Part shown: positions 14,157 to 31,090 of the stretch, one piece after another
Numbering within the stretch: position 1 is the stretch's first letter
How the letters are laid out: each line of letters opens with the position of its first letter
Assembly: GCA_903840015.1 (NCBI GenBank)
Contig: CAIMEL010000024.1
Location: forward strand, 1,057 to 65,056
Source: an uncultured bacterium
Lineage (GTDB): Bacteria; Patescibacteriota; Dojkabacteria; SC72
DNA: 64,000 nucleotides
Direction of reading: 5' to 3'
The notes under the pieces: model-generated
The model's database searches: none
What the model saw: only the letters and a program-made list of their open reading frames with translations
What the model was told of the DNA's origin: nothing
Position numbers and translations under genes: made by a program

Positions 14157-14233
14157 TGGAGCGGGAGACGGGGCTCGAACCCGCAACCCTCTGTTTGGAA
14201 AACAGATATTCTAACCAATTGAACTACTCCCGC
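14157..14233 (-). tRNA. tRNA-Gly (anticodon UCC), CCA encoded
   Basis: Reverse complement GCGGGAG-TA-GTTC AATTGGTTA GAAT-A-TCTGT TTTCCAA ACAGA-GGGTT-GCGGG TTCGAGC CCCGT-CTCCCGC-T-CCA. Confidence 0.85.
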
Positions 14234-22215: not shown

Positions 22216-22782
22216 ATGCTTAAAAAGAAAATTGCAAGAACAATATCCGAAATATCAAATGGATTCCTAACCATGATACTAACTCCACTCATTGGAGTCA
22301 TATCATCTACACTAACTACAAAAGACAAACTCATATACTCCCTAACATACCTCCTCATACCCATCCTACCCTACCTACTACTAAAAAAACTTGGAAAGAT
22401 TACAGATTACGAATTCACAAAAAGAGAAGAAAGACCCCCATACTTCATAACAGTAACACTACTCTTCGGTATAACATACCTAGTACTGAAAGAAACAGGT
22501 ATACAAATTTTAACCAACATATCACTCAATGTGTTCCTGGTATCAGGAATCATAACTCTCATAACCTTCTTCTGGAAAATATCTGGTCATATGACCTACT
22601 CAACCATCCTCTTCGCAACACTAATCTACATATTCAATCAACCATTACTCCTTCTACTCTTCCTCTTCTCCCCTTTCATTGCTTGGTCTAGAATAGTGTT
22701 AGAAAAACACACACTTTCTCAAGTAACTTGGGGAACATTACTTCCTCTCACTATTTCCATTCTCATTTATTGGGGTTTTTGA
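22216..22782 (+). CDS. PAP2-family membrane phosphatase
   Basis: Multi-TM. SGH (WKISGHMTYS) and SRIVLEKHTLSQV fit PAP2 motifs 2 and 3 (PSGH ... SR-x5-H-x3-D). Confidence 0.5.
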   Translation: MLKKKIARTISEISNGFLTMILTPLIGVISSTLTTKDKLIYSLTYLLIPILPYLLLKKLGKITDYEFTKREERPPYFITVTLLFGITYLVLKETGIQILTNISLNVFLVSGIITLITFFWKISGHMTYSTILFATLIYIFNQPLLLLLFLFSPFIAWSRIVLEKHTLSQVTWGTLLPLTISILIYWGF

Positions 22783-22796
22783 TAGAATACAGAAAT

Positions 22797-24245
22797 ATGA
22801 ACCTTACAATAACAGAATTAAGAGAAAAACTACTCAAAAAAGAAATATCTGCAACAGAAATAGTAAATTACTACCTAAAACGGATTTCAGAACTTGATTC
22901 CAAACTAAACTCCTACATAACTGTAAACAGTGAAGAATCACTAGAAAAAGCAAAACTCTTCGACAACAACTTCAACAAATACAAAGACAGAAAACTAGCA
23001 GGAATCCCTGTATCAGCCAAAGACGTCTTCTCAACAAAAAACATACTAACAACCTGTGCTTCACACATACTAGATGGATACAAACCTGTATACAATGCAA
23101 CAGTAATACAAAAGATACTCAACCAAGAAGCAATACTCCTTGGAAAAACAAATCTAGATCAATTCTGTCATGGATCTGGTACTGCAACATCCTACTACGG
23201 ACCCTCTAGAAACCCCTGGAACACACAAATGCTTCCTGGAGGATCAAGTGGTGGTTCTGCCGCTGCATTAGCTGCAGATCTCTGTACAGCAACCCTGGGG
23301 ACCGAAACAGCAGGCTCCCTAAGACTACCTGCTTCCTGGTGTGGACTAGTTGGCCTGAAACCAACATATGGAAGAGTATCTAGATATGGTGTACTTGCCA
23401 TGGGTTCATCCTTGGATTGTCCGGGTCCAATATCAAAATCAGTCGAAGACAGTGCATATATGTTAGAGATCATAGCTGGACATGACATCAATGATTTCAC
23501 TTCATCTGAATCAAAAGTTCCTGAATACAGTAAGAATTTAGATATTTCAAAAATCAAATCTCTCAAACTAGCACTTCCAAAAGAATATCTTGAACTAGAA
23601 CTTGAAGGTGGAGTTAGAAAAAACTTTCTAAACAGCATCCAAATCCTCAAAGATATGGGAGTAAATATAGAGGAAGTAAGCATACTAGATCCTGCATTCG
23701 CAATTGCGGTATATACCATAACTTGTAGAAGTGAAGTCTCTTCCAATCTTGCAAGATATGATGGAACAAGGTTTGGATTAGAGGGTAGTAAAAATGGAAA
23801 CATCAAAGAGTACTATGAATCTACAAGAGGTGAAGGTTTTGGACCAGAACCAAAAAGAAGAGTAATGACAGGAACATTCTCCCTCTCTGCTGGGTATGCA
23901 GATGAATACTTTAGGAAATCAGAACAGGTTAGACAGCTCATCAAAGAAGATTTAGACAAAGTACTTTCGAAGTACGACGCTATCGTAGCACCCACCACTC
24001 CATCTGTAGCATTAACAGACAAAGATGCAGAAAATCCTCTCTTCGGAGAACTAGCAGATGTCCTTGCAGAAGGAAGTTCTGAAGCTGGTTTACCTGGTAT
24101 AACGATACCTTCTGGTTTAAGTAACAACATGCCTACAGGAATACAGTTCATTGGTAGATATTTTGATGAACAAACAATTCTCAATCTTGCATATGCATTA
24201 GAGAAACAGGTAGGCAGATTGATATTAGATACAGGTAAGATATAA
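22797..24245 (+). CDS. gatA: Glu-tRNA(Gln) amidotransferase subunit A
   Basis: MNLTITELREKLLKKEISATEI.., amidase signature GGSSGGSAAALAA; the start is taken at the internal Met of the longer ORF. Confidence 0.9.
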   Translation: MNLTITELREKLLKKEISATEIVNYYLKRISELDSKLNSYITVNSEESLEKAKLFDNNFNKYKDRKLAGIPVSAKDVFSTKNILTTCASHILDGYKPVYNATVIQKILNQEAILLGKTNLDQFCHGSGTATSYYGPSRNPWNTQMLPGGSSGGSAAALAADLCTATLGTETAGSLRLPASWCGLVGLKPTYGRVSRYGVLAMGSSLDCPGPISKSVEDSAYMLEIIAGHDINDFTSSESKVPEYSKNLDISKIKSLKLALPKEYLELELEGGVRKNFLNSIQILKDMGVNIEEVSILDPAFAIAVYTITCRSEVSSNLARYDGTRFGLEGSKNGNIKEYYESTRGEGFGPEPKRRVMTGTFSLSAGYADEYFRKSEQVRQLIKEDLDKVLSKYDAIVAPTTPSVALTDKDAENPLFGELADVLAEGSSEAGLPGITIPSGLSNNMPTGIQFIGRYFDEQTILNLAYALEKQVGRLILDTGKI

Positions 24246-27737: not shown

Positions 27738-28429
27738 AGCTTTTTTCTTAAAAATTTAGGAACAGGATTAAAACTCCTCCTATGTATCTCACAAGCCCCA
27801 TACTCCTTCAAAGCTTCAATATGTTTCTTAGTACCATATCCAACATGTGACTCAAAACCATATTCAGGATATTTTTTAGCATAATCATACATAATCCTGT
27901 CTCTTGTAACCTTTGCCAAAACTGATGCAGCAGAAATACTGTAATGTTGTAAATCTCCTGCTTTAATCTTCACCATCTTGTATTTAGGAATAGTAAGGAT
28001 ATTCTCCCCATCCGCTATAATGTAGTCAACCTTCGAATCCAATTTTCTTTCAACAATATCCAAAGCTATACTCATAGCTTCTAAAACTGCCTTCTGTATA
28101 CCCATACGATCAATATCTTTCGCACTAACAATACCCACCCCAAAGGCTGTAGAAAGTTCTTGAATCTTTTCAAAAGATAACTCTCTCTGTTTCTCTGTCA
28201 TCTTCTTACTATCTCTAACCTCGGGAACAACCTGATTCCCATTCAATATCACAACTGCACCAGCTACAACAGGCCCTGCCAAGGGACCCCTTCCTGCTTC
28301 ATCCAGCCCTACAACATAATGGAAACCTTCACTCCATAATTTCTTCTCTAGTTCTGTATCTGGATATATCATATGTATATATGTTAGCATATATGATATG
28401 AAAAAGATTTTTCTAACCCTTCTCTGCAT
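27734..28429 (-). CDS. rnhB: Ribonuclease HII (the true start is probably the internal Met at MIYPD.., about 19 codons in)
   Basis: VVGLDEAGRGPLAGPVVAGAV and RNase HII catalytic residues; ATGA overlap with the downstream NUDIX gene. Confidence 0.85.
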   Translation of the reverse strand: MQRRVRKIFFISYMLTYIHMIYPDTELEKKLWSEGFHYVVGLDEAGRGPLAGPVVAGAVVILNGNQVVPEVRDSKKMTEKQRELSFEKIQELSTAFGVGIVSAKDIDRMGIQKAVLEAMSIALDIVERKLDSKVDYIIADGENILTIPKYKMVKIKAGDLQHYSISAASVLAKVTRDRIMYDYAKKYPEYGFESHVGYGTKKHIEALKEYGACEIHRRSFNPVPKFLRKKL

Positions 28430-28670
28430 CTTCTGTCTTTACCTTCCAACATCTACTGTTCTTGCTCAAACAGAAACCAAAGAACCAACTTCTGTTACAA
28501 TTGAGGAAAGCACAGAGACACAGCAGAATGAAACAGAAGAGAATCAACCTCAAGTTACTGAGACTAATACCGAATCCAAATATTCTTTCTCAACAATTCT
28601 TCTAGCTATACTTGCACCCTGTCTGTTAATAGTGATTACATATTTTCTTCTTCGCTTTTTTAAATTCTAA
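28398..28670 (+). CDS. small secreted, C-terminally anchored Thr/Glu-rich protein
   Basis: Signal peptide LLCIFCLYLPTSTVLAQT, low-complexity T/E/Q linker, C-terminal TM helix ILLAILAPCLLIVITYFLL. Confidence 0.4.
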   Translation: MKKIFLTLLCIFCLYLPTSTVLAQTETKEPTSVTIEESTETQQNETEENQPQVTETNTESKYSFSTILLAILAPCLLIVITYFLLRFFKF

Positions 28671-28697
28671 ATATTTAATTTTACTTTTACAAAACAT

Positions 28698-29066
28698 ATG
28701 AGAAATGAAGACCCTATGGCCTTTTTCAAAGGAATGCTCTTCGGGGCAGTCGCAGGAGCCGTTGCTGGCTTACTTCTAGCTCCCAAATCAGGGAGGGAGA
28801 CTAGAGAGGATATCAAGAAGCTTGCCGTTGATATGCAGGAAAAAGCAGTCGATATATATGAGGATGCGAAAAAAGAATTAAGAAAGAAGATTGCTGCAGT
28901 TAAGACAGCAGGAGAATTAGTTGATGAGACAAAGTACAGAGTATTGGTCAGACAGGTTGTAAATGAATACAAGAAAGATGCTAAAGTAACAGCTTCTGTT
29001 GCAGAGAAACTAGGAGAACAGCTTAAAGCTGATTGGGTACTAGTAAAAAAGGAATTGATGAAGTAG
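28698..29066 (+). CDS. YtxH-like (DUF948) general stress protein
   Basis: GMLFGAVAGAVAGLLLAPKSGRETREDIKK matches the YtxH N-terminal motif; coiled-coil remainder. Confidence 0.55.
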   Translation: MRNEDPMAFFKGMLFGAVAGAVAGLLLAPKSGRETREDIKKLAVDMQEKAVDIYEDAKKELRKKIAAVKTAGELVDETKYRVLVRQVVNEYKKDAKVTASVAEKLGEQLKADWVLVKKELMK

Positions 29067-29156
29067 TAAAGGATTAAGAGAGGTGCCAAGAAGCATAGTG
29101 GTTAGACCACATATCAAGGCACCCCCCTGTCCTTTTTCCAAGAGAGAGAGTGAAAC

Positions 29157-30125
29157 TTACTCGGTGGGCATTTCAAACTTACCGAGTTCGAGACCACTAC
29201 AGGATGTGAATTTACTCACAAGAACTCCTGCGTCCCGAATTCGGACTAAATCAGGCCATTCTGCCCATGAAAATGGACCTGAGTGGATACCAGCAATGAT
29301 GATGAAGTCTCCAGTCGGCGGGGCCGAGAGGAAGTACTGACCATCAACCATGGTAGCTGGTATATACACATCCCGATAGATTACAGAGAATTCCTCTGGG
29401 CTAAACATATACACCCTTTGGATTTCCCACCACGGGAAGAGCCAACCGTCGATTTCGCAACTCCACGTCCAGGAGCACTTGTCCACAAGTGTCCACATGA
29501 TATGAAGGTTCCCAGCATCTGGATGAGTCATGAACTCGACTGTGAAGTCGGAGCCACAAGCTTCATCGCAGGCAGGGGTGTACGGAATGGCGGGAGGTAC
29601 GTACGGTGGTTTTGGAGGTTTAGGTGTTTCTGGTTCAACACACAAAGGGTCATCGGCCAACAATGTTGGATCCTACTCACAGACCTCAGGGTCTGGTTCA
29701 ACACACAAAGGGTCATCGGCCAACAATGTTGGATCCCATTCACAAACCTCTGGATCTGGAGGTACGGTGACTAACCTAAACGATGCGTGGGAGAGATCTT
29801 GAATCTTCCCATTCTGATTGGTGACACTGCTCGTTACCGTAGCGCTTCCTGTCGGTGGATTTACATTCCCATACACGACAGTCGTGGATGCCTTGTAGCA
29901 TGTTTCAGCCACCAAGTATCCAGCGGGAGCGTTGAAGGTATACGACGTACCAGACAAACCGTCCACTTTAGTCCAATCACCTCCTGAAGGACAAGTATCT
30001 TGCCCACCTCCATTGGCAAGAACGGTTGATGTGCCGACTGCCGCAAGGGCGAACAGAAAAACCAGAAATACTGCAAGAACTTTCTTCATTTTTCCCATCC
30101 TTTTCTCTCTCTTGTTAAAGAACAC
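29157..30125 (-). pseudogene. secreted Cys-rich repeat protein interrupted by a single in-frame TAG; both pieces are in one frame, so this is a pseudogene, a stop-codon readthrough or a sequencing error
   Basis: Signal peptide MKKVLAVFLVFLFALAAVGTSTVLA. ORF 29673..30125 and ORF 29157..29663 share a frame, separated by TAG at complement(29673..29675). Tandem 21-aa repeat CEWDPTLLADDPLCVEPDPEV / CE*DPTLLADDPLCVEP. About 50% GC against about 33% around it. Confidence 0.5.
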
Positions 30126-30226
30126 CGTATTATACTAATTTTTGAGAAGCACCTCAATAACTATGGGATTAAATATTGTTTTTACAATCTGGCAAAAATA
30201 CCATATTCCTAGTAAAATATTCATAT

Positions 30227-30302
30227 GCGAGAGTAGTTCAGTTGGTAGAATGTCTGCTTCCCAAGTAGAAGGTCGCGGGTTCGAATCCCGTCTCTCGCTC
30301 CA
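30227..30302 (+). tRNA. tRNA-Gly (anticodon CCC), CCA encoded
   Basis: GCGAGAG-TA-GTTC AGTTGGTA GAAT-G-TCTGC TTCCCAA GTAGA-AGGTC-GCGGG TTCGAAT CCCGT-CTCTCGC-T-CCA. Confidence 0.85.
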
Positions 30303-30322
30303 TAATATATAGTTAAAGCAAA

Positions 30323-31045
30323 ATGACAGACCCTATTCTAGATCCATCAGAAAATCCTTTCAAAGAAACCTTAATTGTAAGAACAGAGGATACAGAATAT
30401 CCATGTTTAGAGTATGACCCAACAAAGAAAACCTTGATTGTATTGATTGGTGGATCTGGTTCTGGTAAAGATACAATTATGGACGCCATCCTTGAACAAG
30501 GTAATGCTATCCATGTACAAACAGCAACATCAAGAAACATTCGTAAAGGGGAAGATCCAAACAAATATCTTTGGATGAGAAAGCAGAGAGAGGGAGAAGA
30601 CTTTGAAGAATACAAAAAGAATCTCTTACGAGAGTATGACCTAGTAGAACAAGACCCCCATGATGGAAGTGTTTACGGTTTACCAAGATTAAATATTGAA
30701 AAAGCTCTAGCAAATATTGAAGATACCAGATTCCCAATATTGAGGATGGAGATAAAGGGAGCGAAACGTGTACAAGAAATCTTTGGTGAAGATTACAATG
30801 TTGTGGTGATTGGTATAAAGCCAGAGGATGAAAAAGAATTCGAAACCGCTATTAGAACAAGACAACAGGACGATCCATTACCGGAAGAAGAAATCCGAAC
30901 TCGTGTAATTGAGGCTTCACAGAAACAGAAACTTAACGATTCCTTTGCACATTTCACAATAGTGAATAGTAGAAAACCAGGAGGTTTGGAGAGATCAGTA
31001 AATTCTCTAGCATATTTACTTAGAACACTTGCTGGTACAAATTAA
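30323..31045 (+). CDS. gmk: divergent guanylate kinase-like P-loop kinase
   Basis: P-loop LIGGSGSGKDT; ATSRNIRKGE (compare TTRPPRPGE), YGLP (YGT), ILRMEIKGAK (lid/NMP-binding region), FAHFTIVN (YDYVIVND). Confidence 0.45.
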   Translation: MTDPILDPSENPFKETLIVRTEDTEYPCLEYDPTKKTLIVLIGGSGSGKDTIMDAILEQGNAIHVQTATSRNIRKGEDPNKYLWMRKQREGEDFEEYKKNLLREYDLVEQDPHDGSVYGLPRLNIEKALANIEDTRFPILRMEIKGAKRVQEIFGEDYNVVVIGIKPEDEKEFETAIRTRQQDDPLPEEEIRTRVIEASQKQKLNDSFAHFTIVNSRKPGGLERSVNSLAYLLRTLAGTN

Positions 31046-31090
31046 TATTCTTGTTAAAAAAGCGACTCTTTGTTACAATAACGTTACAAT

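Follow-up and report, generated by a model that had tools for sequence, protein, structure and literature searches.

Results

The stretch of DNA analysed here, called the window below, comprises 64,000 nucleotides of contig CAIMEL010000024.1 from an uncultured bacterium, and our subject is a segment of about 1.1 kb within it that is rich in guanine plus cytosine (GC) and that carries a single minus-strand gene (29154-30125), referred to as the island gene. On one side it is convergent with a YtxH gene (28698-29066, + strand) and on the other it is followed by tRNA-Gly(CCC) (30227-30302, + strand), the same two neighbors that had been named in an earlier annotation made from the letters alone (the first-pass annotation). 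GatB, encoded 2 kb away, is 64-76% identical to its counterparts in Candidatus Dojkabacteria metagenome-assembled genomes (MAGs), some of them labelled Saccharibacteria or Patescibacteria. From its sequence, the host is assigned to Candidatus Dojkabacteria, within the Patescibacteria or candidate phyla radiation (CPR).

The island gene is one reading frame of 324 codons on the minus strand, interrupted by an in-frame TAG at 29673-29675. The first-pass annotation described a single gene for about 320 amino acids; the one frame stands, but it had overlooked the stop that breaks it. As assembled, the frame is read as two open reading frames (ORFs), 29673-30125 and 29157-29663. The part ahead of the stop (29676-30089, - strand) begins at a likely start codon, ATG 30089, with MKKVLAV and encodes a signal peptide-like start, an N-terminal domain (N domain), the first copy of a repeat and the start of the second. 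The part beyond it (29157-29672, - strand) encodes the rest of copy 2, a Pro/Lys linker and a C-terminal domain (C domain), and closes with TAA at 29157-29159. A promoter-like site, TTGAGG-17-TATAAT, lies at 30129-30157 (- strand), called on its 10/12 matches to the sigma-70 consensus only, and an AAGGA ribosome-binding site stands 8-9 nt ahead of ATG 30089; together these are plausible expression signals. Plus-strand frames of 163 and 90 codons that overlie the gene had been dismissed earlier as antisense artefacts, and rightly: the longer evolves with a ratio of nonsynonymous to synonymous substitution rates (dN/dS) of 1.83, and the shorter contains a stop in the related contig L001 described below.

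The composition of this gene is outside the range of its host. GC content over 29154-30125 is 49.3% vs 35.8% for the whole window, a z-score of 6.5 relative to 970-bp windows outside the region (standard deviation (sd) 2.1%, maximum 41.3%). The GC jump reported at first is therefore real, with flanks at about 36-38% rather than the 33% then given. The excess is present at all three codon positions, GC1/2/3 being 0.541/0.478/0.471 vs 0.449/0.329/0.298 in 52 long host ORFs (z 2.1/3.6/4.2). Tetranucleotide distance gives z 11.8 relative to other 1-kb windows, so that the segment is an outlier in both of the sliding comparisons that the first-pass annotation had proposed. Its proposed codon adaptation comparison points the same way, in a modified form: an index of this kind, trained on the window's own genes, places the island gene 5.5 sd under the mean (z -5.5).

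Comparison with other Dojkabacteria loci shows that the segment is an insertion. The gene order RNase HII(-), YtxH(+), ..., p361(+), GatB(+) is kept across these loci, and in 16/16 of the more distant ones (14 from genomes, 2 from metagenomes) the site is empty. There, tRNA-Gly(CCC) starts 50-100 bp past the YtxH stop, with an AT-rich terminator hairpin and a TAGTAGAAT-type -10 box in between, and none of the 16 loci encodes a relative of the island protein. When metagenomes were probed with YtxH, relatives appeared only at 61% identity or less, every one of them with an empty site. The guanylate-kinase-like neighbor, used as a probe for close relatives, gave no match in genome or metagenome contigs.

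Among the sampled relatives, the site is occupied only in the window and in L001, a JGI contig of 2234 bp (sample 3300040967) that is 85% identical to the window in nucleotide sequence along its whole length. L001 has the same order of kinase-like gene, tRNA-Gly(CCC), island gene and YtxH. Its tRNA is 100% identical, its island gene is intact (protein P0001) and equally elevated in GC, and its junctions are identical to those of the window. Since the site is empty in 16 relatives and occupied in L001, the segment is a lineage-specific gain, a real insertion common to two diverged genomes. The horizontal acquisition that had been argued from composition in the first-pass annotation is thus supported beyond composition, by the empty sites. 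The same gene, in the same place and with the same GC, an observation that the first-pass annotation had named as one that would speak against acquisition, was found in one relative, L001, the deeper relatives being empty; its presence there shows only that the gain preceded, or spread across, the split of the two genomes.

The limits of the insertion are the YtxH stop on the left and, on the right, the conserved tRNA promoter element CCTAGTAAAAT (~30205). The promoter-like site of tRNA-Gly(CCC) spans 30189-30218 (+ strand), and its TAGTAAAAT -10 element, at the right limit, is common to the window and the empty-site relatives. On the left, the spacer between YtxH and the island gene (29067-29156) contains a GC-rich hairpin (~29082-29123, GGTGCC...GGCACC) that folds at -23.8 kcal/mol on the + strand (z -3.9) and -33.3 kcal/mol on the - strand (z -4.9) and looks like a bidirectional terminator. 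The hairpin that follows YtxH in the empty-site relatives is different, AT-rich, consisting of aagggactagaaatagtccc and a T-run; the island's GC-rich hairpin took the place of this ancestral terminator. The spacer is 93% identical in L001, against 76-86% for the flanks. A perfect 11-bp inverted repeat also brackets the ORF (CAAGAGAGAGA at 29139-29149, TCTCTCTCTTG at 30104-30114), with both arms conserved in L001; chance alone would give about one such pair per 2.9 kb. The repeat could let the 5' and 3' untranslated regions of the mRNA pair, or be an insertion relic.

The first-pass annotation had read the adjacency to a tRNA as a footprint of acquisition. No integrase or recombinase is encoded in the 1.1 kb, the sole long frame being the secreted-protein gene, without a Pfam match. 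Segments of 32 nt and 16 nt from the tRNA 3' end, allowing up to 3 mismatches, match only the tRNA-Gly genes at 14157, 30271 and 44497, and a search for direct repeats flanking the segment found none, so the tRNA-Gly 3'-end repeats that had been suggested as a check do not flank it. The insert lies on the 5' side of tRNA-Gly(CCC), beyond the tRNA's own promoter, and not at its 3' end. Taken together, these observations mean that adjacency is not a sign of tRNA-targeted integration: the tRNA is a neighbor, not a target.

At synonymous sites the window and L001 differ less within the island than around it, at 76/216 sites vs 104/177 in the flanks (Fisher p = 4e-6; comparison over 28575-30796). 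The proportion of synonymous differences (pS) is 0.30-0.41 in the island, 0.52 in YtxH and 0.65 in the kinase-like gene, and the corresponding synonymous rates (dS) are 0.38-0.59, 0.89 and 1.48. This suggests that the common ancestor of the two island copies is younger than that of the DNA around them. It favors, from one genome pair and short of proof, a spread between the two lineages after their divergence had begun.

The interrupting TAG sits within copy 2 of a 63-nt tandem repeat, exactly 63 nt from the TGG (Trp) of copy 1 (29736-29738). P0001 also has TGG at the position of the stop, the aligned codons being GAG TAG GAT in the window vs GAG TGG GAT in L001. Recoding of TAG was considered and rejected, as TAG ends 16/52 host ORFs and is a normal stop in this genome. 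The exportable product as assembled would be about 137 residues long, with the signal peptide, the N domain and about 1.3 repeats; the downstream ORF begins at TTG and is without a signal peptide. Purifying selection is strong on both halves (dN/dS vs L001 of 0.12 before the stop and 0.11 after it; N domain 0.08, C domain 0.07), and no relaxation is seen downstream of the TAG. With dN/dS near 0.1 both ahead of the stop and beyond it, the gene kept its function until recently, and the nonsense change is therefore recent, or an assembly error.

The encoded protein would be exported. From ATG 30089 it starts MKKVLAVFLVFLFALAAVGTSTVLA and continues NGGG..., a signal peptide (30015-30089, - strand) with MKK, a 15-residue hydrophobic core and VLA before the N, judged by eye and by hydropathy (peak 3.3). 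The mature protein has 285 residues, among them 11 Cys, 11 Trp and 32 Pro, and is acidic (40 D+E vs 13 K+R). The tandem repeat (29629-29759, - strand; 2.1 copies, 92% identity) encodes two 21-residue, two-Cys units, DPEVCEWDPTLLADDPLCVEP, that precede the Pro/Lys linker ETPKPPKPPYVPPAIPYTP; similar Cys units occur in P0002, P0041 and P0044. Signal peptide, abundant Cys and P/K-rich linker are as the first-pass annotation described them. It had also recognized no similarity to other proteins, which holds only for annotated families. Pfam, NCBIfam and PHROGs gave no meaningful match to the protein or its relatives. A sequence-profile search of the PDB aligned the N domain only through a low-complexity PT-linker match and returned nothing for the C domain, and a fold search of BFVD gave no match at E <= 0.001. 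The search for remote homologs and structures that had been proposed nevertheless yielded 45 metagenomic homologs of the N domain and 12 of the C domain, as well as confident beta-sandwich models from AlphaFold2 (AF2). The only full-length relative is P0001.

The N domain (~85 residues, ~29769-30011, - strand) is found in those 45 metagenomic proteins at 51-69% identity, with C10, W16, K18, C41, K43 and S-H-A-S invariant. It is modelled as a beta-sandwich with a predicted local distance difference test score (pLDDT) of 94-97 through most of its length. In its relatives it always follows a signal peptide and is usually succeeded by a PT-rich stalk, a variable middle domain and a C-terminus that resembles a sorting signal. 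At least 27/45 homologs end in an LPxTG-like or PAGG[SM]GPS motif, a hydrophobic helix and a basic tail. The form P-A-G-G-[SMR]-G-P-S recurs at the C-terminus of most of the listed homologs (P0013, P0016-P0018, P0020-P0032, P0035, P0037-P0039, P0042), where it precedes a hydrophobic helix and a K-rich tail and looks like a sorting signal. Two N-domain relatives, both in this PAGG-type group, are named Anaerolineaceae or Chloroflexota. The domain is also encoded in phage-like contigs, among RNR, Toprim, MazG and UDG genes in L087 (9130-10161) and L088 (10001-11032) and among DnaB, Mom and dNMP kinase genes in L090 (9941-10552), and four IMG/VR contigs contain it too. In L090 the copy closes with LPVTG, after which come a hydrophobic helix and a basic tail; by its sequence it would be a protein encoded by a phage and carrying a sortase-type anchor signal.

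The C domain (~130-140 residues, 29160-29582, - strand) has its 12 homologs among 1.84 billion representative proteins; a single-protein search of IMG/VR with this domain gave no close match. It is C-terminal in these relatives. Those that have an N-terminal part are Cys- or PT-rich there, and a signal peptide-like start, judged by eye, is present in most full-length members. Modelled alone, it is an all-beta protein, a beta-sandwich, with a mean pLDDT of 85 and a predicted template modelling score (pTM) of 0.79. The conserved positions are mostly Gly, Pro and aromatic residues with one Arg, a pattern that suggests a scaffold or binding module and not an enzyme. The window protein and P0001 both end in ...SCSGLELGKFEMPTE, without a C-terminal LPXTG-like motif, hydrophobic helix or basic tail. 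Relatives of the N domain carry Anaerolineaceae or Chloroflexota names or lie on phage contigs, and those of the C domain lie on low-GC contigs judged CPR-like only by gene content.

Genes for both domain families are found at the GC content of their own contigs, from 35% to 64%. N-domain genes have 37% GC in a 34% contig (L086) and 39% in a 36% one (L090), and they reach 65% in 64% (L089) and 56.5% in 54% (L092) in GC-rich contigs. For example, the P0002 gene has 37% in a 34% contig and the P0053 gene 35.5% in 35.6%. Among C-domain genes, the values extend from 35.5% in a 35.6% contig (L095) up to 48% in a 35% contig (L082). Since members of both families occur at the GC of their own contigs, amino acid composition does not force a high GC, and the island's GC3 of 0.47 is a foreign signature rather than a necessity imposed by the protein. 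The closest relative of the window's C domain, P0046, shows the same GC anomaly in another low-GC genome, which hints at repeated transfers from a GC-richer pool.

Some further observations concern these relatives. The P0046 gene (L082, 1815-2537) has 48% GC and a GC3 of 0.50 in its 35% GC contig; the P0048 gene (L085, 10001-11287) has 45% GC and a GC3 of only 0.29 in a 34% contig. Each lies directly upstream of an orthologous Cupin_2 gene, and both contigs were judged CPR-like from gene content. Another C-domain homolog, P0055, is carried by L093 (1-7293), whose 17 ORFs are co-oriented, mostly small and without Pfam matches; eight of them were compared with PHROGs and gave no match. L093 may be a novel mobile element or phage.

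The surroundings of the island vary as well. A second variable slot separates tRNA-Gly(CCC) from tRNA-Thr(CGT); its length in Dojkabacteria loci runs from about 36 bp up to about 2.3 kb, and the ORFs that it carries in different loci are unrelated. In the window this slot (30303-31090) holds the guanylate-kinase-like P-loop protein (30323-31045), found only here and in L001. The variability of the interval points to a general hotspot at which gene content changes, with conserved core genes on either side. On the other side of YtxH, a 90-residue ORF (28398-28670, + strand) overlaps the start of the opposite-strand RNase HII gene by 32 nt. It has a signal peptide-like start, an E/T/Q-rich middle and a C-terminal hydrophobic segment; it has no Pfam match, and its 3' end is conserved in L001 (97% amino acid identity over the part present). 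The second-highest GC peak of the window (23001-23500, 44%) was rejected as a second island, as it falls inside an ordinary conserved gene for a GatA-type amidase (22728-24245). A structured RNA was rejected as the cause of the GC-rich block, since the ten tRNAs are the only Rfam matches at the gathering score anywhere in the window.

Discussion

We propose a model where the segment is a lineage-specific insertion of about 1.1 kb that brought in a foreign gene for a secreted, modular binding protein with disulfides, recently truncated, and we consider this account probable. The insertion extends from 29067 to ~30190, between the end of YtxH and the promoter of tRNA-Gly(CCC), in a stretch of variable gene content. 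The donor would have had roughly 50% GC, and the synonymous positions would not yet have drifted to the AT-rich usage of the host. A single gene would have arrived with its own promoter-like site and hairpin terminator. In its intact form, as in P0001, the product would be exported by the Sec pathway and would present, in order, an N-terminal beta-sandwich, two 21-residue two-Cys loops, a Pro/Lys-rich spacer and a C-terminal beta-sandwich. Elsewhere the N domain forms the distal tip of Chloroflexota surface proteins whose C-terminal anchors resemble sorting signals, and it is also part of proteins encoded by phages; the C domain of the window protein would occupy the place that the anchor holds in those relatives. 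Finally, a TGG-to-TAG change in the second repeat truncates the product after the N domain, either recently or as an assembly error. Of these elements, the insertion, its foreign composition, the constraint on coding, the order of domains and the stop codon are shown; the route of secretion, the binding role, the donor and the vehicle are inferred. Because neither domain has a catalytic-looking set of conserved residues backed by a known fold, non-enzymatic extracellular binding of an adhesin- or lectin-like kind is the most likely function.

Several points weigh against this proposal. No full-length homolog was found in a genome of roughly 50% GC, and the call of a signal peptide was made by eye and hydropathy. 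The gain is common to genomes 15% apart in nucleotide sequence and hence is not very recent, and GC3 is nonetheless still far from the host value, which requires slow amelioration or a later spread between lineages.

The alternatives differ in what they ask of the evidence. A chimeric assembly, or a contaminating fragment of another organism, might be entertained as the source of the GC-rich block because composition changes sharply at both edges, and yet in the independent contig L001, 15% different throughout, the block meets YtxH on one side and tRNA-Gly(CCC) with the kinase-like gene on the other at the same junctions. Misassembly is therefore excluded by these junctions, and we give the idea virtually no weight. 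Only slightly more credible, and still very improbable, is a native gene whose high GC stems from a composition rich in Pro, Gly, Ala, Cys and Trp or from selection on the mRNA. Some 58% of the GC excess does fall at codon positions 1 and 2, and the P0048 gene reaches 45% GC in a 34% contig nearly all through GC1 and GC2 at a GC3 of 0.29. The island, however, has a GC3 of 0.47 vs 0.30 +/- 0.04, other low-GC contigs encode homologous domains at 35-37% GC, and the site is empty in the 16 relatives. A third origin, an integrase-mediated island that targeted tRNA-Gly(CCC) and has since been reduced to its cargo gene, would agree with the foreign composition of a segment abutting a tRNA and with the variability of the tRNA-Gly/tRNA-Thr neighborhood among relatives. 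It is hard to reconcile with 1.1 kb that hold no integrase or recombinase ORF and no Pfam match, with the lack of a tRNA 3'-end direct repeat nearby (the matches being only other tRNA-Gly genes) and with an insert on the 5' side of the tRNA, whose own promoter lies in between; we regard it as improbable.

Delivery by a phage deserves more consideration, and we would call it unlikely, with an appreciable chance left to it. Here the gene would be a moron-like accessory for a phage-derived surface protein, fixed by illegitimate or homologous recombination and not acquired straight from a cellular donor. N-domain genes do lie in replication and nucleotide-metabolism modules of L087/L088 and L090 and on the four IMG/VR contigs, and the C-domain homolog P0055 comes from the contig of 17 co-oriented small ORFs of no known family. 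Against this, no phage genes flank the insert in the window, GenBank phages searched by tblastn gave no match to the protein, and nothing close to the C domain turned up in IMG/VR. With 36-38% GC, the low-GC phage contigs are unlike the gene at 49%, and L093 gave no PHROG matches that would mark it as a phage. A somewhat greater chance, though again not the one we favor, attaches to the in-frame TAG being a sequencing or assembly error or a minority variant, with the gene intact in the organism. The difference is a single G-to-A in a 63-nt tandem repeat, which is error-prone for consensus calling, constraint is not relaxed in the downstream half (dN/dS 0.07-0.11), and the ortholog P0001 is intact. 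A substitution, unlike an indel, is not a typical assembly error, however, and a nonsense mutation of very recent date would leave dN/dS just as low.

Under the insertion account, this is a cleanly bounded case of a gene gained by a reduced CPR genome, with 16 relatives serving as empty-site controls, and it illustrates that a compositional island can lie beside a tRNA without having been driven there by an integrase. In the cargo, two extracellular domain families that lack annotation are combined. Of most interest among the loose ends is the N domain, which is unusually conserved (50-69% identity) across Chloroflexota, phage contigs and a Dojkabacteria lineage. CPR bacteria are believed to rely on attaching to other cells (PMC10031880), and secreted binding proteins are candidates for such host contact; without that link, this would be an ordinary accessory gene. 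It is tempting to speculate that the N domain is a mobile, phage-spread 'tip' module of surface proteins of Chloroflexota (Anaerolineae), captured by a Dojkabacteria lineage in fusion to a C module of the type seen in CPR-like contigs and recognizing the same partner on Chloroflexota cells. We think this a long shot. If it were true, the gene would be an episymbiont-host attachment determinant drawn from the host's own gene pool, and the GC-rich C-domain genes in L082 and L085 would reflect repeated transfers of the same kind.

Comparison with known systems

In layout, the protein is closest to sortase-type wall-anchored proteins (LPXTG adhesins, resembling the microbial surface components recognizing adhesive matrix molecules, or MSCRAMMs), with which it shares a signal peptide, a distal N-terminal globular domain and a Pro/Thr- or Pro/Lys-rich stalk. 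The likeness extends to the N-domain homologs, most of which end in LPLTG, LPVTG, LPATG or LASTG, or in PAGG[SM]GPS, a hydrophobic helix and a basic tail. One difference is that a C-terminal sorting signal is absent from the window protein and P0001, its place being taken by a 130-residue beta-sandwich. A second difference is that the N domain matches no described adhesin family in Pfam, NCBIfam, PHROGs or PDB profiles. Beta-sandwich carbohydrate-binding modules (CBMs), such as the CBM48/E-set N-terminal domains of glycoside hydrolase family 13 (GH13) branching enzymes and pullulanases, and small lectin or CBM32-like domains may also be counted as near systems.

At the level of the locus, the segment invites comparison with tRNA-linked islands and hotspots of horizontal gene transfer. 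It is like them in its atypical composition, its absence from relatives and the variable interval beside a tRNA between core genes. It differs in having neither an integrase nor an att duplication, in lying 5' of the tRNA and in consisting of a single gene. Chromosomal hotspots are a general concept, and by this comparison the segment would fit the hotspot pattern rather than that of an integrative island.

Transfers of this size have already been reported for CPR bacteria. In activated-sludge MAGs, 84 CPR-prokaryote and 24 CPR-phage transfers of 0.5-5.7 kb were described, with mostly hypothetical proteins as cargo (PMC10031880). The segment is of the same size class and its cargo is of the same kind; what differs is the basis of its definition, which here is the empty site in 16 relatives together with an analysis of selection and not nucleotide identity with a donor. 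The event therefore belongs to a known kind.

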